A stretch of 64,000 nucleotides of DNA from Candidatus Omnitrophota bacterium. Its GTDB lineage: Bacteria; Omnitrophota; Gorgyraeia; Gorgyraeales; Gorgyraeaceae. Shown here one piece after another: positions 27,182 to 48,645 of this stretch. How positions within the stretch are numbered: position 1 is the stretch's first letter; each line of letters starts with the position of its first letter. The notes under the pieces were generated by a model. The model did no database searches and was not told the origin of the DNA. It saw only the letters and a list, made by a program, of their open reading frames with translations. Where the stretch lies: NCBI GenBank assembly GCA_026387235.1, contig JAPLMD010000069.1:26920-90919 (forward strand). Direction: 5' to 3'. The translations under genes were made by a program, and so were the position numbers.

Positions 27182-27197
27182 AAAATTGGATTTTTAT

Positions 27198-27226
27198 TTG
27201 ACACGAAAGCGTTTACGTGTTATACT
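27198..27226 (+). promoter_or_regulatory. Consensus-like sigma70 promoter TTGACA-17 nt-TATACT upstream of giant gene 1
   Basis: TTGACA at 27198-27203, 17-nt spacer, TATACT at 27221-27226. About 70 nt upstream of the ATG at 27296. A near-identical element is found before gene 3. Confidence 0.6.
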
Positions 27227-27295
27227 TTATAGTAGAGTTTTAAAAGCATTTAAAAATACATATAATATTTCCATGAACCTAAAGAGAGGGGTTAT

Positions 27296-30200: not shown

Positions 30201-33200
30201 GGGGTCAGGAAAGGCTGGTAAGAATAGATGTATCTAAACAAGAGAGAATCACTCCGCAAGGCAGGTTTGCAGATATTTTGCGAGACGCAATCTCGTATTA
30301 TGAAAGACGGGGCGCATCTGATGAAGTAGCTGATTTGCAACAGACTGAATTTTACCTAGTTAGGCCGCAAGAGGATGATCCTAATCGCACTCTTCCAGGA
30401 TTTATTTGGTACGATTCAGATGGACATTACCTTATTGCCAAAGCAATGGAACCTAGACAAGCTTATTTTGGTTATGAGGCTATAGATATCTTAAGAGAAA
30501 AAAATCCAAGGATAGATTTTATTGCCAACATGCTTCTCCAGGTAGCACGATATGCTAAAGATCCTTATGGTAAGTGGGACCCATCTATACTTAACCATAT
30601 TTTGGCAGAGTCAGGAAACTATTTATTGGAAGATGCTCGTTTAATTAAAGAAGTGAGATTTATAATTAACCGCCTTTTTAAAGAAGAAACCTCGCCTGAA
30701 GAGAATGACCGGCTTCAGGGGCTCCTTATAGATATAAAACAACGCAAACCAGTTTTGTTCTATGTAGGGTTAGCTAATTTAGGAAGAACATACCTTCAGG
30801 GGATTTCCCCTAATAGATATCCCTGCGTCACTGCTGCAAATTTGTGTCTTGCCAGGAATTATGCTTTTATGGACCAGCATTTACAAAAGGATGCTTATGT
30901 CTCAGAAATAGACAGGACTATCACGGTTTTTAGAGATGTTTTTAATCCTACCTTAACTAGAGCGATTCCCTGGATGCTTCAGGTGTTAAAGGAGCAGCAG
31001 AATCCAGCTAATCCCAATTTAGTTAAGGGAGAAATACTTATAAAGAAAGGCGATAACTTTTTAGATCTTACTTGCGGGACAGGCATTTTTGGTTTGTTTG
31101 CAGCTTTAAACGGTGCAGAGAGTGTTTTAAGCAGCGATATTAATCCAAGTGCTGTGGCTTGCGCGAACTTTAATGCAAAAAAATTAGGAGTAGCTAAGAA
31201 AATGCAGGCAATACAAAGCGACCTTTTTAATGGTATTCCTAAAGATAGAAAATTTAACATTATCAGTTTTACCCCGCCATTCTTAGATGAGCCGCAATCT
31301 CCAGGCGTGTGGTTAGAAAAAGCTGTATATGACCCTGGATTCAGCCTTTTAACCCGTTTTTTAAATAGGGTTGGTAATTATCTAACTGATGATGGAAAGA
31401 TATTGTTTATAGGCACAGATAAGAGTCAGGGCCCAGAAGGGAAAAACAGCACAGGCCTCATGTTAGATTTAGCAAGACGGAAAGGATTTATCAGTACTAT
31501 TATACGTTCTCAAGAGTTTCATGGAGAAACCTACTCAGTTTATGAACTGACCAGAAGATCTGCTTTAGTGTCCGATAGCGAGATAGATAATCTTGTGGCA
31601 ACATCCCTAAGCTCTGACAAGGAATCAGCTAATTTTGCCATTAGAGAGTTAATTGAACAGGCTCGTTCTGCCTTTGATAGCAATCCTGAATTTTATCAAA
31701 GGCTATTCTTGCATCTCGTCCAGATTTATATTGAAGAATCCTATAACGGTTATGTATCGGAAAGGGTGATAGCTAAACGTAATGCAGGGGAGAGACCAGA
31801 CTTTTATGAAGAACAAAAGGCAGCAACCTATAATGCATCGGCAGCGCGAACAATAAACTGGTTTATTAAAGACTATTGTAGAGATGTTTTGAAATTAGAT
31901 CCTGAAGGCCAAATTGTTGAAGACTATTTTAGTTGCCTTCATATGTTGCCTATTATGAATAGAGATATGAAGAGAAGATTTAGCGAGCGTGATGGCATAG
32001 AGATAGATTCTACTATGATTGTTAATGGAAACCCAGAAGAAGTGCAGATGACCAAGGACTTTTATCGCGCGAGGTTGGGGCGTATATATGATTCTTTGAA
32101 AGTGATTGGCATAAGGGACGATCTATGGCTTGGCAATATAGTAGGTATGATGCCTTTATTTGAGGACTATTTGGCCCAGCCATCAAGAGACCAGGAAGCC
32201 AAGGGTAATAAAAAGGTTATATTGCATGTCTTGGCAGTTAATGGCGGCGCAGGAGCCAGAAATATTCTTCTTACAGCATCTTCTGATGGAAAAGGTGAAA
32301 TCATTCTTGACAATGGCCGCACAATGATGGAACAGGGCATTGAACAGGTAAAAGGCATGGTTCAGGGGTTAGTAGAAAGAAACATATATGGCGAATTTTT
32401 TATTGTTATTCCCTGCGATAACATGATACTCCCAGCCATGTATACAGCTGATGCTTACAGATCAGATAGAGGGTTTTATCTCTATGCAAGGAAGACTGAG
32501 GTTTTAAGGGCATCATTGAATGAACTTAAACATTGGGGGCCGCCGTTTGGCCAGATGTTTGCAAAAAGGGAAACGGGTATCGTCAAAGGTTTTGAAGAAA
32601 AACCAAACATATGGAAATTACTAAACAGAGTCATGATCAATGCTATTGAAGAAAGCAATGAAGAAACTTGCGGAAAAAGCATTTCGGAATTTTTATACAA
32701 CTTAGATACCAGAAGGAACAGGTATTTAGATGACTTGAAACAAAAATCCGGGGATTACGCCTTATACCTTATCGCCCTTCCTATGATTGTTCAGGAGGAG
32801 GTATGGAATTATGTCTATGAAAACGGCGAGGTGGAACCTGAAATCAGGAAGATTATCCCTACTTTTGATGAGTGGAAAAGGTTATATAGCGAAGCTAATA
32901 AACATAAGTCTCGAGTAGAAGGATTGATAAACAAAGTTTTAGATGAAGGAGGCACTGTTTCTTTTACAAATACTTTCTATTTTCTTTTATCCAGGCCTGT
33001 AGCAGAAAAGATTTATACTCTATTTTCACAGCCTACTGAAAGAGAGGACAGCGGTTCTTTCTGGGCAAGAAAGCTTCCCAAAGGCCAGACTCCAAAAATG
33101 GTAGCCGCACTTGACTGGGCAGGCTTAATCCTTACACCCATGACTGTAACCCAGGAAACATGGATGGAAGACTATGAAAAAAGAGGCGCTATGTATTTGG

Positions 33201-36166
33201 CAGAGCAGCAGGTGACTGATTTTATAAGTCAGGCTAGCTCCTTAAAAGAAGCCTATTGTCAAAAATTTAGTATAGCTTCCGAAGCTTATGAAGGCCAAGT
33301 AAATGCTTATCAAGAAAAGGCTGCTAAGGAAGGCATAGTTGAGACAGCTTTTCCTGTTCAGGATACTTATCAGAAAACTTTGAAAGCCTTTTTAGAGAAG
33401 GCACTTAAAAAAGATTTAATCAATGCTTTTGCCGCAGATATTAGATCAGCAATGATACAGGATAGTACTGTGCGAGCCAATGTTCTGGAAAGCGCTGAGA
33501 AAGTCACAACATATACTCACTATGACTGGAATAGAATCTGGGAAATGGCTCTGGACATTGACCTGGCAGCCGGCGGTTTAACATGTGTTAACTTTGGCCC
33601 GATCTGGTCTGATGTTGGTACAATTAAAGAAGCCAAGAGGCTGGCAGATTACGAGGTTTCAAAGGATAATCTTTTAGAGAGGGCTTTATATAGAGGTCTG
33701 TTTGAGCTGCCTATTACCCATGATAAAATATACAATGTTGATTCTAATAAGGGTAAGATTGTATATTCTAGCCCAAACGAATTCTTGCGTTATCGCAGTG
33801 TTATTGATGTTCCAGAAGGCGTAACTTTAATAATAGGAAATAGAGTAAGGATTGCTAATAGTTTTATTCAAATAATAGCCAAAAAAGGGGAAACAGTAAT
33901 AATACCTGATGATACTGCAATAGTAGCTAGTTATTTGCGCTGTTCAATAGGAAAGGAAGGCAAGCCAGGGTCATTTGTGTATAGACACGAGCAGAGAAGA
34001 GGTACTTTAGAATTTTCAGGAGATTTCATTACAACGATCCGGACCATTGAAGGGCCAGTGAGAGGAACCCATCCCATAGATGCAACTACTATTGCATGGA
34101 ACGACGTTCCAGTGGCAGGAACTTATACTCCCAGGATGTTGACTAGGCCATTTCCGGGTATGCCTGGACCCTTGCGAGACAAGCCTAAAGTTACTTCTGT
34201 TGTTGTTAGGGAAAAAACATATAGTTTTTATAGAAGTCGTCTCGATCGCATTATAACTACGATTTGGGAGAGAGCACAGTCACAAGAGGTCAGATTTATC
34301 CCTGAAAAGGCCATTGGAAAAATTATAGACATGGTTCAGAATGATAGAGCAAAAAGTGAAGGCAGAGGCTATATTTCAAGTTTCCTTTTTATAGGAGGCA
34401 ATGTCGGAGGTTTAGAGCCTCAAGTTTATACTCAGACATTAGAGAGATTAAGTAAGCATTATTTATATTATACTACTCCAGAAAGAAGGATTGGAGAAGA
34501 AGGGGTTTTCGGAAGGCGAGGCATGTCAGGTTTACAACATTCGTTAAGATCAATGCAACTGAATGATAAATATACTACTGAATTTCTGAATAGAGCCAAA
34601 GACCTGATTAAAGAAAGAAACATGAGAGGGCTTAAAGCATGGATAGAAGAAGCTAAACAGATAGATCCAGAAGAAGCAGGGATTAAGACTTTACGTTGTG
34701 CATTGGACTATTTAAGTAAAGAAGGGAGCCAGGTTGTACTTTACAGGATAGTTAGCAGGGCAGAAATAATAAAAGAGTATATTAGAGGCGAACATGGCGA
34801 AGAATTGGATATAGCTGACGCAGAACGAAAAGCCCGTGATTTATTAAGTGGGAAAGATCCTTATAAAGTTGATGAGCAGGATTTCTTAAGATTAATAGTA
34901 AGAGGGGAGACAGATCCAAATGACGCACATTCAGGCAGCCTGTCACATGACTTGCTTAGACACTATGAAGAAGGAGGTATTTTAAAAGGAGCTCTTGTAG
35001 AGAACGTTGCTAAATATAATATACCCAAAAAGGCCTTAATTAGTATTATGTGCGTCTTTCGCTGCCCTAGCAGGTCGGAGCTATTCTCTGATTTAGCTCA
35101 GCTGCCTCAAGAAGATATAGGCCTTTTAGAAAGTAAACTTGAGGATGCGATGTTTACGCATGACGAGATGTTATCAAGAAAGGTGAAAGAACTCCTTCAT
35201 AAGCATGGTAAGCCAATTACTGTAACCATAGATGGCTTAGCCATGACAGGCAAGAGCACGATGAGTAAAGATATAAGCAATGTCTTAGGATTTACACGTA
35301 TACCTGGAGGAGAGATAAGCAGGCTGATAACAGCTGGCCTGCTTGGAACAGGTATAAACCGTAATACTATAGAATCTACAGAGCCTGATACGATAGTTGC
35401 TGCAGTGCAGCAAACCTTGGAGGACGTGAAATATAAATTAATAGGCGGCGCTGTAACATTGTGCTATAAAGACACAGATTTGCTTAATAATCAAGATCTT
35501 TTAAGTCAACTCCGCAGCCAAGATATCAATGACAATATATCTTCACTTGTTATGAACAGTAACATTGTCAGAAATCTGCTTATAATGCATATCATGGAAT
35601 TGATAAAACAAGTCCATGATCTTGGTTTCAGCGTGGTGATAGATGGAAGATTAGCTGGAACTGAAATAGAACGGCAAGCAGATGTAAAGATTTGTTTGGA
35701 CACAAGCTATGAAGCCATGGCCAGAGCAGATGCCCGTAGAATTATTGACCAAAAAGGTAGTATGACTGCTTACATAGAGAGAACCGGCAATACTATGGCA
35801 GAGTATAGGCAAATTATAAGAAGTGGAGGGTTGCCAGGTGTGGAAAGAGCGATAATGCAGACTTATTATCAGCCAGCAGAAGAAAGAGATGCGAGTGATG
35901 TTTTAGATGTGGCTGAGTATCTATCCAGCAGAGAACAAGATGATGAGATTACTGTTATTTCATCAAGGGGCGTAGAAGATAGATTATCTATTAAGGATGT
36001 AAGAGAAACGATATTTGCAGAGATTATTAAAAAAATTAGCAATGCAGAAGATGCTGTAACTGTACTGAATTTAAGAGAGGGAACCCAGCCAGGAGTACCT
36101 TCAGATGCTGGTGTGTATCTCGAAACAGCTGTTCAAGGACTTAGAACCACAGGTCAAGGCCTATAA
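27296..36166 (+). CDS. Giant secreted multidomain protein (2956 aa). Signal peptide, paralogous N-domain, class-I SAM amino-methyltransferase domain, possible NTP-transferase-like stretch, shared C-module, cytidylate-kinase-like P-loop domain.
   Basis: Sec-type signal peptide MSVKPLSRAISITVLITFLFTNIPYASSA|P. N-domain (~27383-29020) ~80-85% identical to the gene 3 N-domain. MTase motif I DLTCGTG (31063-31083) and motif IV FTPPF (31268-31282). LAVNGGAGARN…FIVIPCDNM (32215-32430) weakly nucleotidyltransferase-like. Cmk-like ITVTIDGLAMTGKST (P-loop) and VVIDGRLAGTE…KICLDTSYEAMARADARR (35213-35745). Confidence 0.85.
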   Translation: MSVKPLSRAISITVLITFLFTNIPYASSAPNSLFKNKKIDYQKLSDQNQDIVQKKKDILSGEDSKQTQSQQKQAQKILSSHLSDISQIHIPSEIGRIVEVHQGTGAPEHQDKLIVHIQDLHTNPEAEYNLAKILEVLLNDYKMGLVCSEGADGVVDTSSVSTFPDSQVREKISKIFVNAGELTGEEYLSITKYPDLPIWGIESKDIYFRNIIDFNKIMKFNPGSQIFISQAKKALEELKARIYTKELIELDQKEADYKAQKIESPEYVKYLLDSAASQPRSKNILSNYKNIGLLTETIDAEKKIDQLKIMNESQKLLLNLQSSLNAKSLNSDMDSLMAKSSLFKDQKISPFSFYSYLKDLANKHLKDEFGAKYPNLNGFVDYLTKLNSLDSTKLFIELEDLNFEIKQALSRTDEQKTLIKALRNISFLEGFFNLKVSNEELDYYLNNKDFHKVAFFESFLKPAIKKYNISTFIDYNPDLIDSHLTELEDFYKVVKDRDIAMVNNSISEIEKRNSKVSALIAGGFHTKGITKLLKEKGYSYIVISPYSKTGINEENYHYLLSGQRKPLMELAEKLNAAALRVILGFVKDPTFETELKKTLAAAGIIDNQLYSGAKPRMLSLFALGAAKTLYLRDKANFDLSALPAYFTSSFYTELNKLGLDVEIRESKSGIHVKCGDNYFGINKEDGGIIKSNASIFTSVSDKNRVMLAKISEEETLKIPGPRISEGITQAVAEKWKARADMVPDSQIKVMRIKDLEIETVLITADSGDMPEGILAWRLRDSKNRLVIITEREVKLGDSFSEELLFHEQFEENLKQELNYITDRDPERLRHTRHAIASAVESILFSEGGTRLTPFHEYAIGHRMSLLHLKRLVDEYQELGFYYNMIADFFTRKGIEYQDKGITIEALQAYERKFIARIKEEIRHRTTESRARAGARRKGKAAEVPKMYLVGKVVVPQDDARTQQVIEQARGQERLVRIDVSKQERITPQGRFADILRDAISYYERRGASDEVADLQQTEFYLVRPQEDDPNRTLPGFIWYDSDGHYLIAKAMEPRQAYFGYEAIDILREKNPRIDFIANMLLQVARYAKDPYGKWDPSILNHILAESGNYLLEDARLIKEVRFIINRLFKEETSPEENDRLQGLLIDIKQRKPVLFYVGLANLGRTYLQGISPNRYPCVTAANLCLARNYAFMDQHLQKDAYVSEIDRTITVFRDVFNPTLTRAIPWMLQVLKEQQNPANPNLVKGEILIKKGDNFLDLTCGTGIFGLFAALNGAESVLSSDINPSAVACANFNAKKLGVAKKMQAIQSDLFNGIPKDRKFNIISFTPPFLDEPQSPGVWLEKAVYDPGFSLLTRFLNRVGNYLTDDGKILFIGTDKSQGPEGKNSTGLMLDLARRKGFISTIIRSQEFHGETYSVYELTRRSALVSDSEIDNLVATSLSSDKESANFAIRELIEQARSAFDSNPEFYQRLFLHLVQIYIEESYNGYVSERVIAKRNAGERPDFYEEQKAATYNASAARTINWFIKDYCRDVLKLDPEGQIVEDYFSCLHMLPIMNRDMKRRFSERDGIEIDSTMIVNGNPEEVQMTKDFYRARLGRIYDSLKVIGIRDDLWLGNIVGMMPLFEDYLAQPSRDQEAKGNKKVILHVLAVNGGAGARNILLTASSDGKGEIILDNGRTMMEQGIEQVKGMVQGLVERNIYGEFFIVIPCDNMILPAMYTADAYRSDRGFYLYARKTEVLRASLNELKHWGPPFGQMFAKRETGIVKGFEEKPNIWKLLNRVMINAIEESNEETCGKSISEFLYNLDTRRNRYLDDLKQKSGDYALYLIALPMIVQEEVWNYVYENGEVEPEIRKIIPTFDEWKRLYSEANKHKSRVEGLINKVLDEGGTVSFTNTFYFLLSRPVAEKIYTLFSQPTEREDSGSFWARKLPKGQTPKMVAALDWAGLILTPMTVTQETWMEDYEKRGAMYLAEQQVTDFISQASSLKEAYCQKFSIASEAYEGQVNAYQEKAAKEGIVETAFPVQDTYQKTLKAFLEKALKKDLINAFAADIRSAMIQDSTVRANVLESAEKVTTYTHYDWNRIWEMALDIDLAAGGLTCVNFGPIWSDVGTIKEAKRLADYEVSKDNLLERALYRGLFELPITHDKIYNVDSNKGKIVYSSPNEFLRYRSVIDVPEGVTLIIGNRVRIANSFIQIIAKKGETVIIPDDTAIVASYLRCSIGKEGKPGSFVYRHEQRRGTLEFSGDFITTIRTIEGPVRGTHPIDATTIAWNDVPVAGTYTPRMLTRPFPGMPGPLRDKPKVTSVVVREKTYSFYRSRLDRIITTIWERAQSQEVRFIPEKAIGKIIDMVQNDRAKSEGRGYISSFLFIGGNVGGLEPQVYTQTLERLSKHYLYYTTPERRIGEEGVFGRRGMSGLQHSLRSMQLNDKYTTEFLNRAKDLIKERNMRGLKAWIEEAKQIDPEEAGIKTLRCALDYLSKEGSQVVLYRIVSRAEIIKEYIRGEHGEELDIADAERKARDLLSGKDPYKVDEQDFLRLIVRGETDPNDAHSGSLSHDLLRHYEEGGILKGALVENVAKYNIPKKALISIMCVFRCPSRSELFSDLAQLPQEDIGLLESKLEDAMFTHDEMLSRKVKELLHKHGKPITVTIDGLAMTGKSTMSKDISNVLGFTRIPGGEISRLITAGLLGTGINRNTIESTEPDTIVAAVQQTLEDVKYKLIGGAVTLCYKDTDLLNNQDLLSQLRSQDINDNISSLVMNSNIVRNLLIMHIMELIKQVHDLGFSVVIDGRLAGTEIERQADVKICLDTSYEAMARADARRIIDQKGSMTAYIERTGNTMAEYRQIIRSGGLPGVERAIMQTYYQPAEERDASDVLDVAEYLSSREQDDEITVISSRGVEDRLSIKDVRETIFAEIIKKISNAEDAVTVLNLREGTQPGVPSDAGVYLETAVQGLRTTGQGL

Positions 36167-36169
36167 GGA

Positions 36170-36341
36170 ATAATCTGGCCTCTGGTTATAGCGCTTTTTC
36201 AGGTTTTAATTATGCCTAAGTGATAGGGGATAAAGGCCTTAAAAGAGGCGTAGTCGAGATAAAGATAAGAGAAACCGGAGAAATCCTGGAATCCAAAAAA
36301 GAAGAAATAAAAGGCAAAATCCTATCATTATTAGCTACGTA
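36170..36341 (+). pseudogene. Degraded duplicate of the proS 3' end (two fragments with an internal deletion)
   Basis: Translates to IWPLVIALFQVLIMPK* … VVEIKIRETGEILESKKEEIKGKILSLLAT*. This parallels the proS C-terminus IWPLAIAPFQVIIIPL … VFELKIREANKIIEIKKEEIKHKILSLIAL*. Roughly 70% nt identity over both fragments. Confidence 0.75.
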
Positions 36342-36396
36342 GTACACAATAAAAATATAGAATTTTTGTTTGACAGAAAAGCGGAAGAGGGGAGCC

Positions 36397-38130
36397 ATGT
36401 TTTTTAAATCATTTAAGAAAATCACTCCAATTATTGCCCTGGGCATATTTATAGCTGTTAATACTATACATGCGGCGTCTGATTCCAAATCCATATTCAA
36501 AAATAAAAAAATTGACTACCAAAAACTGAGCACTGAAGAAGAAGAAGCCCTTCGAAGAAAAAAAGCTATGCGCAGCGAAGAGGCTGTCAATAAACCTAAA
36601 GTCCAGAAAAAGGAAACCCAGAAGATAGTTTTTTCGCGTCTTTCTGATATATCGTTCATCCACATCCCCCAGGAAACAGGGAAAATAGCGGAAATATACC
36701 AGAGCCCTAACCAGGATAATTCCAGGCTCGTAGTGCATATTCAGGACTTACATACTAATCCGGAAGCAACGCTTAACCTGGCCAGGATACTGGAAATATT
36801 GTTTAAAGACTATAATCTGGGGTTAGTGTGTTCAGAAGGGGCAGAGGGCCCGGTTGATACTTCCAGCGTTGCCAGTTTTCCTGACCCAGAAGTCAGGGAA
36901 AAAGTAGCCAAGCTTTTTGTTGATTCAGGAGAGCTCACAGGAGAGGAGTATTTATCCATAACAAAATATCCGGATCTACCCATATGGGGCATTGAAAATA
37001 AAGATATCTATTTTAAAAATATCGAGGAATTTAACAGCATAATGAAGTTTAATCATGATTCCCAGGCTTTTATCTCCCAGACTAAAAAGGCGTTAGAAGA
37101 ATTAAAACCAAAAATTTATTCGAAAGAGATGCTGGAGATAGACCAGAAAGAAGACGATTACGAACAGCAGACAATAGAAACAACCGATTACTTAAAGTAC
37201 CTGTCTTTATATCTTCGGAAACTGAACATCCCGGCAGACAGCTATAAAAATATAACGCTATTAAATGAGACTATAATACAGGAATCCAGGATTGACCAGC
37301 AAAAGGTCAAGCAGGAATCCCAGGACATGCTTTTGAATTTACAGTCAGCTATTGCCAAGAAGCCCAATAGCACGGATATGGATAGTTTAATGGCTAAGGC
37401 CACCCTGTTTAAGGACCAGAAAATATCGCCTTTTTCATTCTATAATTATCTAAAAGAGCTGGCAGGTAAAGAGTTAGGGGGCCAGTTGTCAAAATATCCA
37501 AATGTAATGGGCTTTGTGGATTATCTTGCAAAAGTCAATTCGCTTGATTCCGCAAAACTTTTTACGGAGATAGAGAATCTGACCTACGAAATAAAACAAA
37601 AGCTCGCTGTAAATAATGAACAGAAAGAGCTTGTCCTTGCCCTGCGCAATATAAAATTTCTTGAGACCTTTTTTAATCTTGAAATTTCCAACGAGGACCT
37701 GGAGTATTATTTAAATAACAGGGATTTTCACAAAGTAGCGTTCTTTAAGGATGTTTTAGCGGGTTTGAGGGCCAAGGCAGGGCTTTCGACCCAGGCAGAT
37801 TATATAGATTTTAATCCTGATTTAATAGATTCTCACCTAGGGGAGATAGAAGATTTCTATGAAACCGCAAAATCCAGGGATCTGGCTATGTTTAATAACG
37901 CTGTCTCAGAAATAGAAAAGCGCAACGTAAGAGTGGCTGCTCTGGTAACAGGCGGATTTCATACAAAAGGCCTGACCAGGCTTTTAAAGGATAAAGGCTA
38001 TTCCTATATAGTTATATCTCCGTATGCAAAAACCGGCATAGACGAAGAGAATTATCGTTTTCTGTTATCAGGTAAGCGCAAGCCAATAGAAGAAATAATA
38101 AAACAATTTGAGGAAACTAAGCAAAAATAA
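36397..38130 (+). CDS. Secreted stand-alone copy of the ~560-aa N-domain (paralog of genes 1 and 3 N-termini)
   Basis: Signal peptide MFFKSFKKITPIIALGIFIAVNTIHAAS|D followed by the SIFKNKKIDYQKLS motif. Colinear with the gene 1 and gene 3 N-domains throughout (VHIQDLHTNPEA…CSEGAEG…GGFHTKG…LLSGKRKP). The ORF-track start at 36370 is a TTG that forms part of a TTGACA box; the ATG at 36397 is preferred. Confidence 0.8.
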   Translation: MFFKSFKKITPIIALGIFIAVNTIHAASDSKSIFKNKKIDYQKLSTEEEEALRRKKAMRSEEAVNKPKVQKKETQKIVFSRLSDISFIHIPQETGKIAEIYQSPNQDNSRLVVHIQDLHTNPEATLNLARILEILFKDYNLGLVCSEGAEGPVDTSSVASFPDPEVREKVAKLFVDSGELTGEEYLSITKYPDLPIWGIENKDIYFKNIEEFNSIMKFNHDSQAFISQTKKALEELKPKIYSKEMLEIDQKEDDYEQQTIETTDYLKYLSLYLRKLNIPADSYKNITLLNETIIQESRIDQQKVKQESQDMLLNLQSAIAKKPNSTDMDSLMAKATLFKDQKISPFSFYNYLKELAGKELGGQLSKYPNVMGFVDYLAKVNSLDSAKLFTEIENLTYEIKQKLAVNNEQKELVLALRNIKFLETFFNLEISNEDLEYYLNNRDFHKVAFFKDVLAGLRAKAGLSTQADYIDFNPDLIDSHLGEIEDFYETAKSRDLAMFNNAVSEIEKRNVRVAALVTGGFHTKGLTRLLKDKGYSYIVISPYAKTGIDEENYRFLLSGKRKPIEEIIKQFEETKQK

Positions 38131-38166
38131 AGGATAGGGGATGAAGGAAAACGCCCAATTTTTTAT

Positions 38167-38195
38167 TTGACAAGAAAACGGTTACATGGTATACT
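38167..38195 (+). promoter_or_regulatory. Duplicated sigma70-like promoter TTGACA-17-TATACT upstream of gene 3
   Basis: ttttttatttgacaagaaaacggttacatggtatacttttatatag is near-identical to tttttatttgacacgaaagcgtttacgtgttatactttatagtag upstream of gene 1. Confidence 0.6.
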
Positions 38196-38240
38196 TTTAT
38201 ATAGATTTTAAAAGTATTTATATAAAAAGGAGAATAAGAT

Positions 38241-41200
38241 ATGACTTTTAATACTATGAAGAAGGTTGCTTCTATAGTTACATTTATTAGTTTTATAGCC
38301 ACTAATAGCATATATGCCGCGCCTGAGTCAAAGTCTGTATTCAAGAACAAGAAGGTGGACTATCAGAAGATTAATGACCAGAATAATGGCGTTATTCAGA
38401 GGAAAAAGGCCATTCTTAACGGAGAAGACGCAAACCAGGTTGAGTCCCAGCAAAAAGAGGCTCAGAAGATACTCTCATCCCATCTTTCTGATATATCACT
38501 TATCCATATTCCTGCAGAGTTGGGAAGAATTACCGAAGTCTACCAGAACCCAGATGCTGAAAACTCCAGGCTAATTGTCCATATCCAGGATCTTCATACG
38601 AACCCTGAGGCAGAGTATAACCTTGCCAAGATACTTGAGCTTTTATTGAATGATTATAAAATGGGCCTGGTGTGCTCAGAAGGTGCTGATGGCGCAGTGG
38701 ATACTTCAAGTATTTCAAGTTTCCCGGATTATGCAACAAGGGAAAAGGTCTCAAAGATATTTGTCAATGCAGGCGAGCTTACAGGAGAGGAATACCTCTC
38801 AATAACAAAATACCCTGCTCTACCTATCTGGGGAATTGAAAATAAGGAAATATATTTCAAAAATATAATTGATTTTAATAAGATAATGAAATTTAATCCC
38901 CAGTCACAGGTTTTTATATCACAGGCAAAAAAGGCGCTTGAAGAACTTAAAAACAAGCTTTATACAAAAGAGCTTTTGGAATTAGACCAGAAGGGATTAG
39001 ATTATAAGGCGCAGAAACTTGAGTCAGCAGATTATATAACATACCTTACAGGATATGTCCAAAAACTTAATATCCCAACGCTCAAATATGAGAATGTTTC
39101 GCTATTGAATGAAACTATTGATATGGAGAAAAGAATAGGCCAGCTGAAGATAATGAACGAATTGCAGAATCTATTACTGAATCTGCAGGCGGCGTTTTTA
39201 TCCAAATCCATGAAAGGAGAATCTGATTCTTTAAACGCCAACGCCCAGCTTTTCAAAGACCAGAAGATATCGCCGTTTTCATTTTATAGTTACCTGAAAG
39301 ACCTTGCGAATAAGCACCTTAAAGACGAATTTTCTGCAAAATATACAGCTATAAATAGCTTTGTAACCTACCTCACAAAAGTAAATTCATTAGATTCCAC
39401 AAAGCTATTCATAGAATTGGAAGACCTTAATTTTGAAATAAAAGAAGCGCTCTGTAGAACAGAGGAACAAAAAACGCTTGTGAAGGCGCTCCGCAATATA
39501 GATTTCCTTGAAGGGTTTTTTAATCTGAAGGTCTCAAATGAAGAATTAGATTATTATCTTGAAAATAAAGAATCCCATAAGGTGGCGTGGTTCAAATCTG
39601 CAATAACGGGCATAACAGGCAAAATAGGCCTAACGGGCCAAACGAACTACATAGATTATAATTCGGCTTTAATAGACCCGCATCTAACTGAACTTGAAGA
39701 ATTTTACAAGGTTGTAAAAGAGCGCGATGTGGCAATGGTGGATAATTCATTGTTTGAGATTGAGAAACGCAGATCAAAGGTAAGTGCATTAATAGCAGGC
39801 GGATTCCATACAAAAGGCATAACAAGGCTTTTAAAGGATAAGGGGTATTCTTATATAGTAGTATCTCCGTATTCAAAGACAGATATGGATGAGCAAAATT
39901 ACCATTTCTTATTGTCAGGAAAAAGAAAACCCCTTGTAGAATTATTGAAACAATTAGATTTAGGTGGAATTGTAAAAAGATACATCACTTCTACCGGCCT
40001 TCGAGTAAATATGGGTTGTGATACAGATATGGATGCGGCTTTTGGACGTCAAGTAATTCCTGAACTTGCAAAAATATGGGATTTTGAACCAGAGGATTTG
40101 CATCGATGGAATTTACCTCCAAGAGTGGTAGCTTGTTTAGTATTTCAAAGCGCAGCAGCAGGAAGAACTGACTTTAAAGGATGGCCGTCAATAGTTGGGT
40201 TAGAGCTAAATGATATAGGTGTGTTAAAGCTTACTTCTCGTGAAGGGTATATTTACTATGTTGAAGTTACCGCTGATAATAAAGTAAAAGAAGCAAAGCC
40301 AGATGCTTTTAATAATGGCACAGTAGTTGTAAATATACCATCAGCAGGCACAGGGCAAATAATCGCAAAGGAGCTACAAAAGGTAGATTTAAGTGCTGTA
40401 GAACCGGAAGCAGCCGTAGGTTCTCTTTTTAACCTTTTGGATTTACTTATACGCTTACGTGATGGTCAGGGAATCACAGAAATTTCAACTGGGAAATTAA
40501 AAACGGAGCGCACTGCAGTTGGTGTCAGAATGGTTGACAGAGAAATAAACGCAGGCCGTTTGCTCGGCATATTAGAGGACAAAGAAACATCAAGGGGAGT
40601 TGTTAAATTCACAGAGCCATTTAAAGATATTACCCGTGCAGAATTAGTAGAAATAAATACAGAAATAGCAAAAATCCTGCCTAAAGGTTTAGGCAGAGGG
40701 ACATTAGATCAGTTAGATCAAGTTAAACTAGAGCAAGTAAGAAAGATAGTAGAAACTTTTAAAAAAGTGGACGGATTACGAACACAACAGGGTAGAGAAG
40801 CGGAGTTTTTGGTTCAAAATGTGCAGAAGTTGTCAAGAGTTGATGGAGGTATAGTTGCAGGTATTGGATTACAGGATATTCATGGCCGGGTGTTTAAGCT
40901 AAATGGCCAGTTTTTTAACGATGATGGTAGCTATACCGAGGAGTTGCAGAAGTTTATGGATACTCTCTCTGATAATTCGGTCCAAGAGATGATACATGCA
41001 GGGATTATGTATTATGATATTCGCTCTAAATACTGGAAAGATAACCCTGCATTTACAGTGGCATTTGCATTTGCCTTTGCAAAGAAGTTGCAGGAAATAG
41101 AGGGCAGGCAAGATGGTATAGTGCTTCATATAGGCGTCGATGCATATCATAAGCATTTTGAAACAGCTCAGGTTTTTGCTGATGCAATATTGAGGACAGG

Positions 41201-42854
41201 GATATGCGATAATGGAGGAGGTATTTATTACTGGGGCGTTATAAATGGCGGTGATACGCGAAATTATGGTCAGCTTTATCATGCAATGAATAATGGAAAA
41301 GGCGGAAACTGGGTTTATTTTACCATGAGCCATGTTCGCGATGATTTTATAGGAGCTAAGTTAGGCAGAGGCGCTAAAGTATACTGCGGATCTGAAATTC
41401 GGCATTGCGAAGACGTAACAAGCGGCACATTATATGATGCTATAGTTGAAAAAGATTTTACTCCAGTAAAACGTAATATTCCTGTTGGGAATATTGTAAC
41501 TGTGAGTAATGTTATAAAAAATAATATTGAGGTTGCAGCAGATATGATAAGAGCAACTTCTGATAGCAGTGATATACCAACAAATGAGTTATTGAAAAGT
41601 GAAAAAGCAAAATTTTATGTTCTTATGGGTGGCAGTCCAATGGCTAAGAATCTAGTGGATATGCTCAAGGCTCTTGGTGCTGATATAGAGGTTGAAAGTG
41701 GAAGCGTGGATAAGAATTTTAATACAGCCAATATTATAGACCCTAATGAGCTTAATAATCCTAATGCGCATCCGCTTCAAGTTGCTATAAATAAAAGATT
41801 GAGAGAGATAGCGAAAGAGACAGGCAGGACGGTTTTAGTAGTAGACCCTGATGCTGATAGAGGATCGATTGTTGCTATAAATGAAGAAGGAGAAGCAATA
41901 GCTTTATCAGGTTCGAAGTTATTACTTCTGGCTATGGAACCACTGGCGCGCAGTTATAAAGCTAAAGGACTTCCTCCTCCTACTGTAATTTGCGACATGA
42001 GAACAGGGGTAAGCGCTAAAGATTTAGCAAAGGTGCTTAATGAAAGAGGATTTCCAATCAAGGTTGTTCCACATGAGGCTGGTTATCCATTTTTTATGAG
42101 AGGAATGGCGAGCTTGCCAGCTGATCTGGCTGTAGAAAATACTACGCATGCATTTATGAACCCTATGACAAACCCGAAATGGGGCGCGCCAGAAGAATAT
42201 AGAATGCCAAATGGTGAGGGTTATCAAGGTGGTGATAATGCCGCTCTTTTCCTTATTTATTTGGCAGGCTGTATGGTCCATCAGTGGGAAGGTAGAACCC
42301 CTGCCCAGCAATTAGAATGGCTTGAACAAGAATATGGCATTAAAAAGACTATAGATGATGAACGGAAACCCAAGATGCCAGTGAAGGATGATAAGTACAA
42401 ATATATTATTGCAGGTAGAATGAAAATGTTGGCTAAACAATATTGTACTGATAAAACTAGGTTTTTAATTAATTTCGATGATCCTAAGGTTAGTTTGGTA
42501 AGCGGTGTCCATCTGACAAATGTTAAAACAGGCGCCATGGTTTTAGTAAGATTTTCTAATACAGGTTCAACTTTTACGATTTCTGGTGAAGCCTACTATA
42601 GAAAAGATTTAGGCGAAGGGCGTGAGAGAGAAGATTTGAATGAAATGTTGGGCTTGGGGTATTGGATTATGATTACCGCAGTGAATCAATTGCACGCCGA
42701 GGGCAATGTTTTTGATTTTGATCCCAAGGATGCTGCTGAATTGGAAAATCAACCAATTGTAGCTGAGATGAATCAAATGCTTACAGACACTCAACACGAA
42801 GGTTTGCAGCCTGCTATTACAAAGATATCTAGAGACATAGGTTCAGGTATATGA
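38241..42854 (+). CDS. Giant secreted protein (1537 aa): signal peptide, N-domain, unknown middle region, C-terminal alpha-D-phosphohexomutase (phosphoglucomutase)-like domain
   Basis: Signal peptide MTFNTMKKVASIVTFISFIATNSIYAA|P. Phosphohexomutase signatures: active-site-Ser-like YFTMSHVRDD (~41321), metal loop VDPDADRGSIV (41844-41861), phosphate-binding loop RFSNTGSTFTISGEAYY (42548-42600), comparable to RLSGTGSxGATIRLY of PGM. Confidence 0.8.
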   Translation: MTFNTMKKVASIVTFISFIATNSIYAAPESKSVFKNKKVDYQKINDQNNGVIQRKKAILNGEDANQVESQQKEAQKILSSHLSDISLIHIPAELGRITEVYQNPDAENSRLIVHIQDLHTNPEAEYNLAKILELLLNDYKMGLVCSEGADGAVDTSSISSFPDYATREKVSKIFVNAGELTGEEYLSITKYPALPIWGIENKEIYFKNIIDFNKIMKFNPQSQVFISQAKKALEELKNKLYTKELLELDQKGLDYKAQKLESADYITYLTGYVQKLNIPTLKYENVSLLNETIDMEKRIGQLKIMNELQNLLLNLQAAFLSKSMKGESDSLNANAQLFKDQKISPFSFYSYLKDLANKHLKDEFSAKYTAINSFVTYLTKVNSLDSTKLFIELEDLNFEIKEALCRTEEQKTLVKALRNIDFLEGFFNLKVSNEELDYYLENKESHKVAWFKSAITGITGKIGLTGQTNYIDYNSALIDPHLTELEEFYKVVKERDVAMVDNSLFEIEKRRSKVSALIAGGFHTKGITRLLKDKGYSYIVVSPYSKTDMDEQNYHFLLSGKRKPLVELLKQLDLGGIVKRYITSTGLRVNMGCDTDMDAAFGRQVIPELAKIWDFEPEDLHRWNLPPRVVACLVFQSAAAGRTDFKGWPSIVGLELNDIGVLKLTSREGYIYYVEVTADNKVKEAKPDAFNNGTVVVNIPSAGTGQIIAKELQKVDLSAVEPEAAVGSLFNLLDLLIRLRDGQGITEISTGKLKTERTAVGVRMVDREINAGRLLGILEDKETSRGVVKFTEPFKDITRAELVEINTEIAKILPKGLGRGTLDQLDQVKLEQVRKIVETFKKVDGLRTQQGREAEFLVQNVQKLSRVDGGIVAGIGLQDIHGRVFKLNGQFFNDDGSYTEELQKFMDTLSDNSVQEMIHAGIMYYDIRSKYWKDNPAFTVAFAFAFAKKLQEIEGRQDGIVLHIGVDAYHKHFETAQVFADAILRTGICDNGGGIYYWGVINGGDTRNYGQLYHAMNNGKGGNWVYFTMSHVRDDFIGAKLGRGAKVYCGSEIRHCEDVTSGTLYDAIVEKDFTPVKRNIPVGNIVTVSNVIKNNIEVAADMIRATSDSSDIPTNELLKSEKAKFYVLMGGSPMAKNLVDMLKALGADIEVESGSVDKNFNTANIIDPNELNNPNAHPLQVAINKRLREIAKETGRTVLVVDPDADRGSIVAINEEGEAIALSGSKLLLLAMEPLARSYKAKGLPPPTVICDMRTGVSAKDLAKVLNERGFPIKVVPHEAGYPFFMRGMASLPADLAVENTTHAFMNPMTNPKWGAPEEYRMPNGEGYQGGDNAALFLIYLAGCMVHQWEGRTPAQQLEWLEQEYGIKKTIDDERKPKMPVKDDKYKYIIAGRMKMLAKQYCTDKTRFLINFDDPKVSLVSGVHLTNVKTGAMVLVRFSNTGSTFTISGEAYYRKDLGEGREREDLNEMLGLGYWIMITAVNQLHAEGNVFDFDPKDAAELENQPIVAEMNQMLTDTQHEGLQPAITKISRDIGSGI

Positions 42855-45800
42855 ATTTATTCATAATGAGGAAGAATATGCCGCATAGCTACTTTAAAAA
42901 AACCCTATCTTTTTTTACCCTGATTGCTTTTATTTTTACAAATGCTAGCTATGCTGCCCCTGATTATAATAGCTTATTTAAAAATAAAGCAGCGCTCAGG
43001 GTGCCGCTTAATTCTGATAAGCTTAGGGATGAATTTTTAGAAGTTGCTTCAGCCAAAGGTACAGGAGTTGCGCATCGTGGCTCTAATAGCATAAATGAAG
43101 CAATAAGATTAGCATATGACGCAAGGAACAAAGACAAAGAAACATTTTTTGTAATTCAAGAAAATGGAAAACCAGTCAGAGGAATCAGCAGATATCACGC
43201 TGCTATTTTACCTGCAACTTTCAAAGCTATAGACAGCCTGGATGCATCAGCAGTAAAACTAATATTAACAAGACTAGAGAGAAACATTTCTGAAATCTTA
43301 GGCCTTAGAATCCGACTATCAACAATAGGCAAAGATCAAATTAAAGATACGATAGAATCAGCTTTGACAGTTTTAATAAAAGACCCAAATGATCCTGATA
43401 ATCCTCTTATTATTGCGAAGAGCCTTAATGAATATAATGCTGGACATAATAGCCCTAAAAGAAAAAGTATATATTTACCAAGAAGGTTTATAGATGGCCT
43501 GATAAAAGAGGGAGAGATGAGTATCGTAGCAGCAGCTGAAGGCCATGAAGGTTTTCAGCTTGCCGTTGCACTTGCTTTGGGTAATAAATATGATGAAAGA
43601 AATGAAGTCTTATTGGATGCAATTAATAACGCAGCTGAAGAGTTTGAGTGTTTAATAGCAGGAAAAAGCAGATTAGGATTAAATAGCAGGCTGGACGACC
43701 AGATATTGGCCTCAATAGCATGTACTACAAGAGGCGCACAAAAACTTCAATTTGCAAATTCGCTATCTCAAAAGGTTACTCCTGAGCATGGGCTTAGTGA
43801 AGAAGATTTGGCTGAAGTGAAAGATGCATTGGAAGAGGTCCACGCCTCTATTCAATCAGATGACAGCCTTAATGGGTTATATAAAAGCCCGTCAAGTTAT
43901 GTGGAAAGACAAAAAGATATAGCCCGGATGAGCGCGCTAGCAGAAGAATGGAAAGATAAGTATAATGATATTTTGATTATAGGCGGAGAAGATAGCGGTA
44001 CCCATATGGCATTTACAGCGCTTACTGAAGAAAACCGGAACAACCTTTCTAAAGCAGAAAGAAAAGGATTTCCTAGGATACATTTCGTGGACATGGATAA
44101 GGTAGTTGAAATTGCACACCGCATAGATTTAAAAAAGGCTGGAATTTTAGTAATAGGTAATAATATAAGCAATGCTAATGCTGCAACATGCAGGTATTTA
44201 CAAGAAATATATGGTAAAGAAGGTATAGCATCCAGACTTGCTATTGTAGGTGACTCAGGAAAGACATTAGGGGAAACAGTGCCTTCTGAGAAACAGTTTT
44301 CATTACCCGAAGGCTTAGGCAACATGGATTCTTTTTTTAGCGCCGCAGGATTACTGCCTATTGTTTTGGCAGGTAAAGTTAGGGAGGCTCAGGATATATT
44401 GACAGGAGCTGAATCTGCTGCTGAGGATATAGCAGGAATAGATTTAACTGCTCCAACAACAGGAATTCCAGCCATATTCATGTATCCTGAATATATGCAT
44501 CCTGGAATTATTGCAGCGCTATATGAAAAAAAGGCAAAAGATGTGAGCATCTATTGTCCTTTTTCAGAAAAATTGAGGTTATTTGGTGTATGGACTGCAA
44601 ATCAGTTTAATTTAGTTATAAGCGGAAGAAAAGGTAATAGTTTAGTTTTTCAAGGCGCAGTAGGCACAAGGCATAATCATGCCAGTTTACAAAACTGGCA
44701 AAAAGGCCATAATATGTTTCAAGTAATTACACTTGGGGTGAATGAATTTAATAGCAATCTGGCTGCCGGAAGGTCCAGTTACAATCTATTTAGAAATATG
44801 TCATTTGCTGACCTTATGAATTTTGCAATGGAAGGCACAGAACAGGCTTTAGCAGATGGGAAAAGGCCAAATTTAGGCTATAGAATTAAGAAAGTAGATG
44901 GAGTTAATTTAGGAGGATTGATTTATACAACGCTTTATCAAAAACTCGTTCTTTCTAGATTGCTAGATAAAATGGATAAAGGAGAAAGGGCGCAAACAAC
45001 AGTTGCTAGTTTAGAAAAAGAGACAGAAAATGCTGTTGCGAGCAAGGTTGTTTCTGCAGAGGGCAAGCCTAGTGTTATAAGAGATGCTTCTGGCCTTAGC
45101 CTTGATTATTCAGGTGCTCTTGGAAAAGATGGAGTAACTACGGAAGAGATGCCTGAGGTTGTTGCAGATTTGGTAGATATACAGATGGAAGTGGCAAAAG
45201 AAAGACTTGCAGGTAAACATGATTATCTTAATCTTCCTGAGCGCATGATAAAGGAAATCCAATCAGATAATTTTAGAGGTATAATGAAGGACTTCAGGGA
45301 GTTTGAGGATGTCCTTGTAATAGGCATAGGAGGTTCTAGCGTAGGTGCAAAGATGTGCTTGCAAGCACTTTCTGTGCCTGGTGATAGAAAAATTCCAAAT
45401 GTTTATTTTCTTGAAAGCGTGGATCCGGATTATATAGAAGAAATAACCAAGAATATTGATTTTACAAAAACAGGAATAATTGTAATCAGCAAAACCGGAG
45501 AAACAATGGAATCCAATACAGTCTTCGCAGCTGTAAAAGAAATGATGCAGCAGAGTTTTAGCAGTATTGGCCAGCCTGCGGATTACAAAAAGAATATATT
45601 AGCCATTACAGATCCTGATCATGGCTTATTGAAAAAGGAGGCAAAGAGAGAAGGGTATCGCACCTTAGATGTACCTCCTTTAGTAGAGGGCAGATTCACA
45701 GTGCTTTCCGCAGTGGGTATTGCAGTCATAGGGCTTAAGCTTACAGATAATGAATTATTAGAATTGTTAGAAGGTGCTAGAGATTATGTAAATACAACAG

Positions 45801-48571: not shown

Positions 48572-48591
48572 TATTTGCTAAATAGTATTTC

Positions 48592-48645
48592 AGGGACGGT
48601 TCTGGTGGAGCCAATAATAGAACCGTCCCTCAATTTTGGTATTTT
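48592..48645 (+). terminator. Rho-independent terminator-like hairpin after giant gene 4
   Basis: Perfect 11-bp stem AGGGACGGTTC (48592-48602) / GAACCGTCCCT (48620-48630), 17-nt loop, then CAATTTTGGTATTTT. 20 nt after the gene 4 stop; gene 5 ATG at 48646 follows immediately. Confidence 0.6.

Follow-up and report, generated by a model that had tools for sequence, protein, structure and literature searches.

The DNA analysed here, a stretch of 64,000 nucleotides from a Candidatus Omnitrophota bacterium (the window), carries downstream of the prolyl-tRNA synthetase gene proS three genes (g1, g2 and g3) that share a signal peptide and an N-terminal domain (N-domain), and between g1 and g2 a decayed copy of the proS 3' end (the relic). 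Comparison with other Omnitrophota loci (designated L001, L003 and so on) indicates that the three genes are long-diverged versions of one conserved locus assembled into a mosaic, not a recent local expansion. Judged from their sequences, the three units appear not to have been copied from each other within this genome; most likely, the array was built from already-diverged versions of the locus, with other lineages as the source. With moderate confidence, we propose that a diverged homologous cassette, consisting of a proS tail, a promoter and g1, was inserted at about codon 471 of proS and displaced the former tail, promoter and g2. The relic would then be a rare dated scar of mosaic building, in which the C-terminal domain of a neighbouring essential gene was swapped or displaced. 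The arrangement is unusual: each of 16 other loci has a single N-domain copy, and none has a relic. The features are listed in Table 1.

Table 1. Coordinates of the features in the window (position 1 is its first letter).
Feature	Position	Strand	Description
proS, prolyl-tRNA synthetase	25445-27181	+	578 aa, intact; Pfam tRNA-synt_2b, tRNA_edit, HGTP_anticodon
Resident proS 3' segment	26853-27181	+	Codons 471-578, homologous to the relic; anomalously diverged from about codon 481
Promoter P1	27191-27244	+	TTGACA 27198-27203, 17-nt spacer, TG-TATACT ending at 27226
g1	27296-36166	+	2956 aa: signal peptide, N-domain (27296-29038), orphan cargo
proS relic	36165-36342	+	Decayed copy of the proS 3' end, directly 3' of the g1 stop codon
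Relic block A	36165 to about 36216/36217	+	Codons 471-487, GIIWPLVIALFQVLIMP; in frame with the g1 stop codon
Relic block B	36220-36342	+	Last 40 codons and stop codon; frame shifted relative to block A
Promoter remnant P2	36362-36396	+	T-run, TTGACA 36370-36375, GAAAAGCG, then ribosome-binding site GAAGAGGGGAG
g2	36397-38130	+	577 aa, stand-alone N-domain with signal peptide
Promoter P3	38160-38213	+	TTGACA 38167-38172, TG-TATACT ending at 38195; intact
g3	38241-42854	+	1537 aa: signal peptide, N-domain (38241-39971), then cargo
g4, g5, g6	42851-53254	+	More cargo genes of the array, before rimP-nusA-infB

A decayed proS tail with an internal deletion and premature stop codons had been reported at 36170-36341 in a preliminary description of this DNA, and the fragment is indeed a genuine degraded copy. 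It corresponds to proS codons 471-578, of which 17 and 40 codons survive; codons 488-538 are absent owing to a 151-nt deletion that causes a frameshift, and stop codons are found at 36164-36166, 36221-36223 and 36224-36226. Nucleotide identity to proS was 81% both in block A (36165-36216 versus 26853-26904) and in block B (36295-36342 versus 27134-27181). Block A, translated in frame 36152, reads GIIWPLVIALFQVLIMP compared to GIIWPLAIAPFQVIIIP in proS, and block B, translated in frame 36151, reads VIGDKGLKRGVVEIKIRETGEILESKKEEIKGKILSLLAT compared to IIGEKSLKKGVFELKIREANKIIEIKKEEIKHKILSLIAL, each of the latter two followed by a stop codon. The alignment to the proS 3' end, which the preliminary description had proposed as a check, was significant: the local alignment score of the relic was 59, while shuffled sequences scored 22 ± 2.7 (maximum 33; z = 13.7) and 153 other segments of the window reached at most 31; tblastn gave E = 1.4e-8. 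The raw intergenic MAFFT alignment misplaced block A, and protein-anchored, gap-free blocks were used for the relic comparisons. The starts of the two copies, AAGGCATAATATGGCCGCTC at 26853 and AAGGAATAATCTGGCCTCTG at 36165, match at 15 of 20 positions, which fits a decayed core as well as plain homology; at the right junction (36161-36167) microhomology was not clear. A 40-codon ORF with a GTG start (36220-36342) was considered as a still coding part of the relic and rejected, as it has no ribosome-binding site and encodes the end of a domain cut in two.

The gene g2 is a full copy of the N-domain, as described before, and most likely starts at the ATG at 36397 rather than at the TTG at 36370. 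Homologues of the family mostly have 560-600 aa, and the stand-alone architecture of g2 is the usual one. Purifying selection acts on g2 (dN 0.28-0.29 against g1 and g3, dS saturated). The N-domains of g1 and g3 are 70-71% identical in amino acid sequence, well below the 80-85% estimated earlier, and g2 is 61% identical to either. As nucleotide sequences, the 1.7-kb repeats are 64-69% identical and their longest common exact word is 20 nt; they are too diverged to endanger the assembly, and the collapse or recombination that had been feared is no realistic concern.

In the N-domain tree (like all trees here, neighbour-joining with simple distance corrections) g2 grouped with the gene of L010 in 98% of bootstraps (71% amino acid identity) and g3 with the proS-adjacent gene of L001 in 82%, the homology between the latter two running to residue 675. 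Any grouping among g1, g2 and g3 received 0%, and synonymous sites among the three N-domains were saturated; the N-domains therefore do not look like in-genome duplicates. Identity to other N-domains was 59-61% for g2 and 63-68% for L010, giving g2 the longer branch. The suggestion that g2 is an older or faster-evolving duplicate was thus half right: by its placement g2 is sister to the L010 gene and evolves somewhat faster.

The cargo of g1 contains methyltransferase-like and cytidylate-kinase-like domains, g4 PGI-like and FBPase-like domains, and g6 a HAD-like domain; the signal peptides of g4 and g6 are of the same kind as those of the array. Among 5.8 billion proteins only g1 itself matched its cargo, and no donor turned up for either g1 or its tail. 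A search of a plasmid collection with g2 gave no match, and a metagenome scan with g2 returned only relatives at 54-59% identity and no pre-insertion state. Base composition was uniform over the array, the GC profile showed no step marking foreign DNA, and an Rfam scan of the whole window at gathering thresholds matched no RNA family.

P1 and P3 match 11 of 12 consensus positions each, P1 with an extended -10 element. The TTGACA-containing region upstream of g2 had been likened to that of g1. Its TTGACA and GAAAAGCG do match the start of the g1 promoter, but both the -10 box and some 75 nt of leader have been lost; no promoter-like site was called at P2, and no terminator-like site was found between g1 and g2. 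The promoters of g1 and g3 are not near-identical, as had been stated, but share 78-80% identity over 54 nt, and each is as close to the promoters of other genomes. Their likeness results from conservation of the element across genomes; the P1 element is also found 3' of proS in eight loci (L001, L003, L008, L009, L010, L011, L012 and L017).

The locus is a variable region of Omnitrophota between the conserved genes proS and rimP, and normally contains a single gene that encodes a secreted protein of some 570 aa and is either alone or fused to long enzyme-like cargo. In 8 of the 10 other Omnitrophota loci that include proS the N-domain gene follows it directly, which agrees with the proposed home site at the proS 3' flank; the exceptions are L011, with the N-domain one gene later, and Gorgyraea, with the N-domain after a giant gene. 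Synteny of proS, promoter and N-domain gene was observed in L001, L003, L008-L010, L012 and L013, the minimal state being that of L013, a stand-alone N-domain right after proS. The N-domain gene is predicted to be transcribed from the strongly conserved promoter just past proS. A second proS copy or fragment was absent from all 10 loci.

Comparing the relic with proS tails over the 159 nt available, nucleotide identity was highest to L010 (83.6%), followed by L011 (81.1%), L009 (80.5%) and L001 (76.1%), and lowest to the resident tail (71.1%). Bootstrap support for pairing the relic with the L010 tail was 81%, and for pairing it with the resident tail 0.6%, which argues that it did not descend from the latter. 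In 1000 of 1000 codon bootstraps the relic was nearer to L009, L010 and L011 than to the resident tail; the functional resident tail is 74% identical to these three, below the 80-84% of the relic. Differences between relic and resident tail at codon positions 1, 2 and 3 numbered 11, 6 and 29, compared to 14, 4 and 24 between the true orthologous tails of the window and L001, and to 4, 7 and 15 between relic and L010. This excess at third positions suggests that the relic diverged while coding and not by neutral decay since the split. Against functional tails elsewhere, the relic differed at 7.5% of first and 13% of second codon positions. The relic diverges from L010 by 16%, matching the roughly 17% by which the 5' part of the present proS differs from L010, and little neutral decay therefore seems to have been added.

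The anomaly lies in the resident tail. Over the whole gene, proS of the window is 80-82% identical to that of L001 and L009-L011. Before codon 480, divergence was 0.176 between the window and L009, L010 and L011 and 0.177 among those three, while beyond codon 480 the resident tail reached 0.303 compared to 0.209. In the tail, dN was 0.22-0.26 for pairs that include the window and 0.13-0.14 for others, and dS 1.6-1.8 compared to 0.65-1.1; both rates were about 1.7 times higher for window pairs in the tail only and equal in the proS 5' part. At the protein level the anomaly was moderate (rank 11 of 113). The excess starts at about codon 481, next to the relic start at codon 471, which counts in favor of displacement, its left boundary being placed only to about codons 471-495. 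As the anticodon-binding domain begins at residue 482, faster evolution of this domain in the present lineage is an alternative reading of the same onset. Of the outgroups in Tajima relative-rate tests, L010 alone gave significance (p = 0.02-0.03), and the distant L003 and L008 reversed the result; being outgroup-dependent, the tests were given no weight.

From these comparisons we infer the following course of events. The relic would be the once-working 3' end of proS. A homologous but diverged segment, comprising proS codons from about 471 to 578, P1 and g1, would have recombined into proS near codons 471-490, through one homologous crossover that brought in a circularised fragment or through homology-facilitated illegitimate recombination, both of which seem likely mechanisms. 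The incoming segment would have given proS a new anticodon-binding tail and thereby kept it intact, and the former tail, P2 and g2 would have been shifted 9.3 kb downstream. The old tail and P2, redundant after the insertion, would then have eroded, the former through the 151-nt deletion, the frameshift and the stop codons, the latter through removal of about 75 nt with the -10 box among them. The loss of the -10 box from P2, the 11 of 12 consensus positions in P1 and P3 and the lack of a terminator between g1 and g2 fit redundancy after insertion; g2, which keeps its ribosome-binding site and remains under purifying selection, is now probably read through from P1. P3 and g3 may have arrived in an earlier round of this process and have since lost their own proS relic entirely. 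As no proS relic precedes P3, this layered version needs an extra deletion. The orphan cargo of g1 without a donor and the uniform base composition also count against displacement.

The flanks speak against displacement. In a tree of flanking core genes (1991 aa) this genome paired with L009 in 81% of bootstraps and with L010 in 0.2%, while relic and g2 pair with L010. This fits better with an import of relic, P2 and g2 from an L010-like Omnitrophota, illegitimately recombined between g1 and P3-g3. The resident tail would then be native and merely faster-evolving, and the relic never functional in this genome. Its coding-like substitutions are equally expected if it had been functional in the donor, and the g2 branch, longer than that of L010, is what a redundant import should show. 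The flank tree has a short internal branch, however, and an import of this kind requires two illegitimate junctions, leaves unexplained why the dS and dN excess of the resident tail begins beside the relic start, and makes a coincidence of the match between the relic-L010 distance and that of the native proS 5' part to L010. We regard it as possible but doubtful. The preliminary description had explained the array by tandem duplication of proS tail, promoter and N-domain in this genome, and the layout is what this would produce: the repeated unit of proS tail, promoter, signal peptide and N-domain is borne out by the anatomy, with tail, promoter and N-domain at 26853-29038 and 36165-38130 and promoter and N-domain at 38160-39971, head to tail, in the same order of parts and with an end-of-unit to start-of-unit junction at 36164/36165. 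Followed by divergence, an older or faster g2 and neutral decay of the relic, such a duplication is nevertheless improbable. Neither the relic and resident tail nor g1, g2 and g3 are closest relatives in the trees, the codon-position differences have the coding-like pattern given above, and a fragment evolving neutrally since the N-domain split, with its saturated dS, would no longer be recognisable. Duplication also predicts that the pseudogene is more diverged from the orthologues, and here it is the functional tail that is.

The coding-like pattern of the relic and the deep split between g1 and g2 would also be explained by an ancient duplication of the whole unit including a complete second proS, after which the two synthetase genes would long have remained functional until a recent deletion from the end of g1 to codon 470 truncated the second. 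We consider this quite improbable, as the 5' part of the resident proS is no farther from L009-L011 than these are from each other, so that an old paralogue would be conceivable only with gene conversion; a second copy is absent from the 10 other loci, and many parallel losses would be needed. That the source is a metagenome-assembled genome brings to mind an assembly chimera of two populations at this locus. Two living genomes would be expected to contribute an intact tail and promoter, whereas the relic is deleted and frameshifted and P2 lacks its -10 box. Moreover, the junction at 36164/36165 offers no common sequence that could bridge assembly paths, and the repeats have at most 20 identical bases in common. 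A chimera appears highly improbable.

The displacement favored here has counterparts in known systems. According to PMC13626634, which cites Hill et al. (1989), element e14 in icd of E. coli carries a diverged 3' end of the gene, so that icd remains intact, and leaves the original as the C-terminal pseudogene icdC. The present locus is similar in that the insertion lies in the 3' part of a housekeeping gene, a replacement 3' end would have been supplied and the native end would be left at the far side, in a direction that we infer. While e14, a prophage, encodes a site-specific recombinase and has defined attachment sites, the 9.3-kb insert here consists of a promoter and a giant ORF. No integrase or transposase domain was found in 26853-36164, which contains only P1 and g1, with reverse-strand ORFs of at most 93 aa. 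Also unlike e14 and icd, the relic is internally deleted, and the junction sequences have the limited match described above. In Rhs C-terminal displacement and in the T6SS effector-immunity arrays of Vibrio cholerae, as presented in PMC5361080 (citing Jackson et al., 2009), a horizontally acquired module anchors by homology to a conserved sequence upstream, occupies the site of expression and pushes the prior module downstream, so that fragments and "orphan" modules come to lie one after another; homology-facilitated illegitimate recombination is the proposed mechanism. As in these arrays, the anchor (proS) is intact, a displaced 3' fragment directly follows g1, and origins are discordant, relic and g2 pairing with L010, g3 with L001 and the flanks with L009. 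The anchor, in contrast, combines the 3' end of an aminoacyl-tRNA synthetase gene with a promoter and is not the variable gene's own core, and the displaced g2 is complete and under purifying selection and not an orphan tip. Pfam detected no toxin or immunity domains in the array, only MTase, CMP kinase, PGI, FBPase, PGM and HAD, and immunity-like small ORFs were not present in it.

A role in a host-dependent or predatory lifestyle has been suggested for the large secreted proteins of Omnitrophota. For this phylum, the locus points to a fixed chromosomal site that exchanges secreted-protein cargo. Taken further, and only tentatively, the proS-rimP interval could be a dedicated, integrase-free site of cassette exchange between Omnitrophota lineages, the units consisting of a proS tail, a promoter and a secreted EreA/ChaN-like protein with or without giant cargo. 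Such units would recombine in the 3' end of the essential aminoacyl-tRNA synthetase gene, every arrival would swap the C-terminal domain of the synthetase and stack the older unit downstream, and circles looped out between tail and tail relic could be the mobile intermediate. The giant Omnitrophota proteins known as "Archaeovorins" and their relatives, with glycolytic-enzyme-like domains, occur in the same phylum; the likeness is one of description, and the array proteins have 0.6-3 k aa compared to >10 k aa. The terms proS, rimP and TraB were absent from the publications on giant Omnitrophota proteins that we searched, and neither these nor one on lateral transfer in the phylum mention the present locus. 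In those giant-protein publications, neither the N-domain family nor its constant location between proS and rimP seems to be described.

The N-domain has an EreA/ChaN/TraB-like fold. The alpha/beta fold shared by the EreA/ChaN/TraB/TIKI-like superfamily is present, split by a helical insert of about 300 residues, and the structural matches are 10-13% identical in sequence to the N-domain. Neither g2 nor the N-domain had a Pfam hit at E <= 1e-3, and an N-domain profile searched against PDB sequences found nothing below E = 0.077. The motifs HIQDLHTNPEA, SEGAEG and GGFH are invariant, and H119, E147 and H522 (the latter in GGFH) are identical in all 36 sequences; they are candidates for positional equivalence to the active site of the superfamily, of which we take a His/Glu motif pattern to be expected. 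The analysis thereby yields two conserved features that can now be searched for, an unannotated secreted protein and a promoter.

In this Omnitrophota metagenome-assembled genome, six array genes (g1-g6) lie between proS and rimP. A secreted domain of ~570 aa with an EreA/ChaN/TraB-like fold, the N-domain, starts g1 and g3 and makes up all of g2; the region after it is termed cargo. The proS, g1 and g2 proteins each have an NCBI protein record, in which the entire g1 protein is named '(d)CMP kinase'. The start of g2 is most likely ATG 36397, downstream of the ribosome-binding site GAAGAGGGGAG, rather than the listed TTG. Between g4 and g5, a strong hairpin (GGGACGGTTCT ... AGAACCGTCCC) with a T-rich stretch at 48593-48629 is probably a terminator within the array.

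Features of the proS-rimP region and related sites in other Omnitrophota loci (L numbers)
Feature	Position	Strand	Remarks
proS	25445-27181	+	Pfam: class II core, editing domain, anticodon-binding domain
Promoter P1	27191-27244	+	After proS; conserved promoter site
g1	27296-36166	+	2956 aa
g1-g2 spacer			230 nt; carries proS relic and P2 remnant
g2	36370 (listed TTG start) to 38130	+
Promoter P3	38160-38213	+	Conserved promoter site
g3	38241-42854	+	1537 aa; PGM-like domain (weak match)
g4, g5, g6	to 53254	+	g4 PGI-like and FBPase-like; g6 HAD-like
rimP-, nusA-, infB-sized ORFs	from 53372	+	Order as annotated in L007 and L010
Conserved promoter, other loci	L009 11755-11810; L010 7945-8005; L011 11730-11790; L001 3365-3425; L017 11735-11790
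Shared signal-peptide leader	42851-43000; 50630-50720; L017 11847-11930		g4; g6; Gorgyraea giant gene

The preliminary description had placed a decayed copy of the proS 3' end between g1 and g2, and alignment to proS confirmed it. This relic (36165-36342) contains two homologous blocks, each with 81% nucleotide identity. Block A (36165-36216 versus proS 26853-26904) translates to GIIWPLVIALFQVLIMP (proS: GIIWPLAIAPFQVIIIP), and block B (36295-36342 versus 27134-27181) to VIGDKGLKRGVVEIKIRETGEILESKKEEIKGKILSLLAT in another frame (proS: IIGEKSLKKGVFELKIREANKIIEIKKEEIKHKILSLIAL), both block B and its counterpart ending in a stop codon. The similarity is real (tblastn E = 1.4e-8; local alignment score 59, whereas shuffles scored 22 ± 2.7 and no other window segment exceeded 31). 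The internal deletion and premature stops were also found as described: the relic represents proS codons 471-578 without codons 488-538, and carries a frameshift and stop codons. The g1 stop TAA (36164-36166) is in frame with block A and aligned to a proS lysine codon AAA; g1 may formerly have read into the relic, or have acquired its stop at the junction.

The TTGACA-containing region before g2 proved to be the start of a g1-type promoter, not a complete one. In this remnant (P2), the relic is followed by a T-run, TTGACA and GAAAAGCG, and then directly by the ribosome-binding site, the -10 box and ~75 nt of leader being missing. P1 and P3 were the top two promoter-like sites in a promoter scan (11/12 with TG), which called no site at P2 and detected no terminator between g1 and g2. 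The conserved post-proS promoter (TTGACA, 17 nt, the extended -10 TG-TATACT and a conserved leader) occurs in many Omnitrophota, and the element TTTTTATTTGACAAGAAAGCGTTTACATGGTATACTTTT lies downstream of proS in L001, L003, L008, L009, L010, L011, L012 and L017. As it is present after proS regardless of the first gene, the promoter is tied to the position and not to the N-domain. The g3 promoter had been called near-identical to that of g1; P1-P3 identity is only 78%, below P3-L011 (87%), P3-L009 (83%) and P1-L001 (81%). The likeness of P1 and P3 is due to conservation and not to a recent origin.

Synteny in other Omnitrophota loci supports the proS 3' flank as the home of the N-domain gene, as had been proposed. 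The series uppS-cdsA-dxr-rseP-ispG-proS, followed by the promoter and the N-domain gene, is complete in L008, L009, L010, L012 and L013 and partial in L001 and L003. ispG lies between rseP and proS in the window, L003, L008-L013 and L017; in L001 (464-3294) it is absent and proS directly follows rseP. One gene separates proS from the N-domain gene in L011, and in Gorgyraea a giant gene without N-domain does so. In Gorgyraea atricola (L007), the stand-alone N-domain gene downstream of this 4352-aa giant gene is preceded by a perfect long hairpin (GCAACCCCGGAGGTTGCC...GGCAACCTCCGGGGTTGC, 9905-10005), and the conserved promoter is not there. Downstream of the region, rimP-nusA follow in L007, L010 and L013, and the window has ORFs to match. 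In the minimal form of the locus (L013), only a stand-alone N-domain gene and then an 84-aa ORF separate proS from rimP. Each of the 16 other loci has one N-domain copy and none has a proS relic.

The N-domain had no Pfam match and no PDB sequence match. All homologues were in Omnitrophota-type sequences, most of them stand-alone proteins of 560-600 aa; a long helical insert interrupts the fold, HIQDLHTNPEA, SEGAEG and GGFH are invariant, and every copy starts with a signal peptide. The window does hold three copies, although g1 and g3 share 70-71% amino acid identity and not the 80-85% previously given; g1-g2 and g2-g3 each share 61%. At the nucleotide level identity is 64-69% and the longest exact word in common 20 nt, so that the suspected repeat-driven assembly collapse is no concern. 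dS was saturated in all three pairs and dN was 0.20-0.29, indicating that these N-domains are old and under purifying selection. In a tree of 30 N-domains, g2 grouped with L010 (98% bootstrap), g3 with L001 (82%), and g1 with the g3-L001 pair (91%), while groupings of window copies alone received 0%. The g3-L001 protein homology extends ~100 residues further past the N-domain.

The relic, like g2, is closest to L010. Over 53 gap-free aligned codons, it differs from the resident proS tail (codons 471-578, 26853-27181) at 11/6/29 first/second/third positions, a pattern matching the orthologue reference of window versus L001 tail (14/4/24). Its nucleotide identity is 83.6% to L010, 81.1% to L011, 80.5% to L009, 76.1% to L001 and 71.1% to the resident tail; the codon-bootstrapped tree joined it with L010 in 81% of replicates, as against 0.6% for the resident tail, and in every replicate L009/L010/L011 were nearer to it than the resident tail was. 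Since third positions differ by 28-55% among the compared tails, a neutral fragment should have diverged similarly at all three positions since the tails split. First and second positions of the relic differ from L010 by 7.5 and 13%, and the relic presumably belonged to a working proS through most of its past, becoming a pseudogene comparatively late. Placement of the proS tail before g2 is thus much younger than the g1/g2 split, and is ruled out as the origin of g1 and g2.

The most likely mechanism, to which we give about an even chance, is displacement: a block of replacement tail, P1 and g1 would have inserted into proS, leaving the former tail downstream as the relic. Up to codon 480, window proS diverges from L009/L010/L011 by 0.176, as these do among themselves (0.177); past it the values are 0.303 and 0.209 (1.45x). 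Tail dN is 0.22-0.26 in window pairs versus 0.13-0.14 in others, and dS 1.6-1.8 versus 0.65-1.1, while both are equal in the 5' part. The change adjoins the relic start (codon 471), and relic-L010 divergence has the value expected for a native tail. Over codons 481-578 (26885-27181), the resident proS is ~1.45x more diverged from relatives than in its remaining part, in dN as well as dS, and this proS may be chimeric. The main rival, import of relic, P2 and g2 together, is unlikely, yet draws on six flanking proteins (1991 aa), whose tree joined the window with L009 (81%) and hardly with L010 (0.2%), the partner of both relic and g2. Moreover, the anticodon-binding domain starts at residue 482, and faster evolution of this domain alone could look like a breakpoint; the tail anomaly is moderate at the protein level (rank 11 of 113), and relative-rate tests varied with the outgroup.

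Both lines would be reconciled if block 2 came from an L010-like source and block 1 later displaced its tail, but this requires two events and total loss of an older relic before P3. Array growth by plain in-situ duplication, as originally proposed, conflicts with displacement and import alike and is very improbable, given the 0% for window-only N-domain groupings and 0.6% for relic with resident tail. We give hardly any credence to an assembly chimera, which should fuse intact stretches where both contain a common word; no such word is present at the junction, P2 is truncated, and the relic carries a deletion, a frameshift and stop codons.

A displaced gene 3' end beside an insert bringing its replacement is already known, as is stacking of cassettes by displacement. 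The e14 insertion in icd leaves icdC as displaced end (PMC13626634), the same architecture as proS and relic, with the replacement end at the insert and the displaced end beyond, and this likeness speaks for displacement. What is new is the phylum, the use of an aminoacyl-tRNA synthetase tail with conserved promoter as anchor, the absence of any recombinase from the insert, and a cargo in which a secreted EreA/ChaN-like protein bears enzyme-like extensions.

Cargo past the N-domain is not conserved between genomes. At E <= 1e-10 among 5.8 billion proteins, g1 cargo (29096-36163, 2356 aa) matched only itself; as close relatives of g2 and g1 cargo are absent from the collections searched, no pre-insertion state was seen in them. 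g1 cargo contains methyltransferase-like (~1250-1330) and cytidylate-kinase-like (2643-2821) domains. Residues 2340-2612 of g1 match 594-869 of g6 (34313-35131 and 52337-53164; 45% identity, E = 2e-65), a cargo module common to two array genes. The N-domain-type signal peptide (...F[IL]xTNxxYA[AS]) also occurs on g4, which retains the SLFKNK motif, on g6 (internal ATG) and on the Gorgyraea giant gene after proS, and this leader looks like a separate module. By term search, proS, rimP and TraB are unmentioned in bioRxiv 10.1101/2023.11.21.568195 and in a second paper on giant Omnitrophota proteins, and the locus and N-domain family therefore appear undescribed there. The preprint reports glycolytic-enzyme-like domains in large Omnitrophota proteins, which are echoed at 38241-53254 by signal-peptide proteins with domains resembling cytoplasmic sugar-phosphate enzymes.
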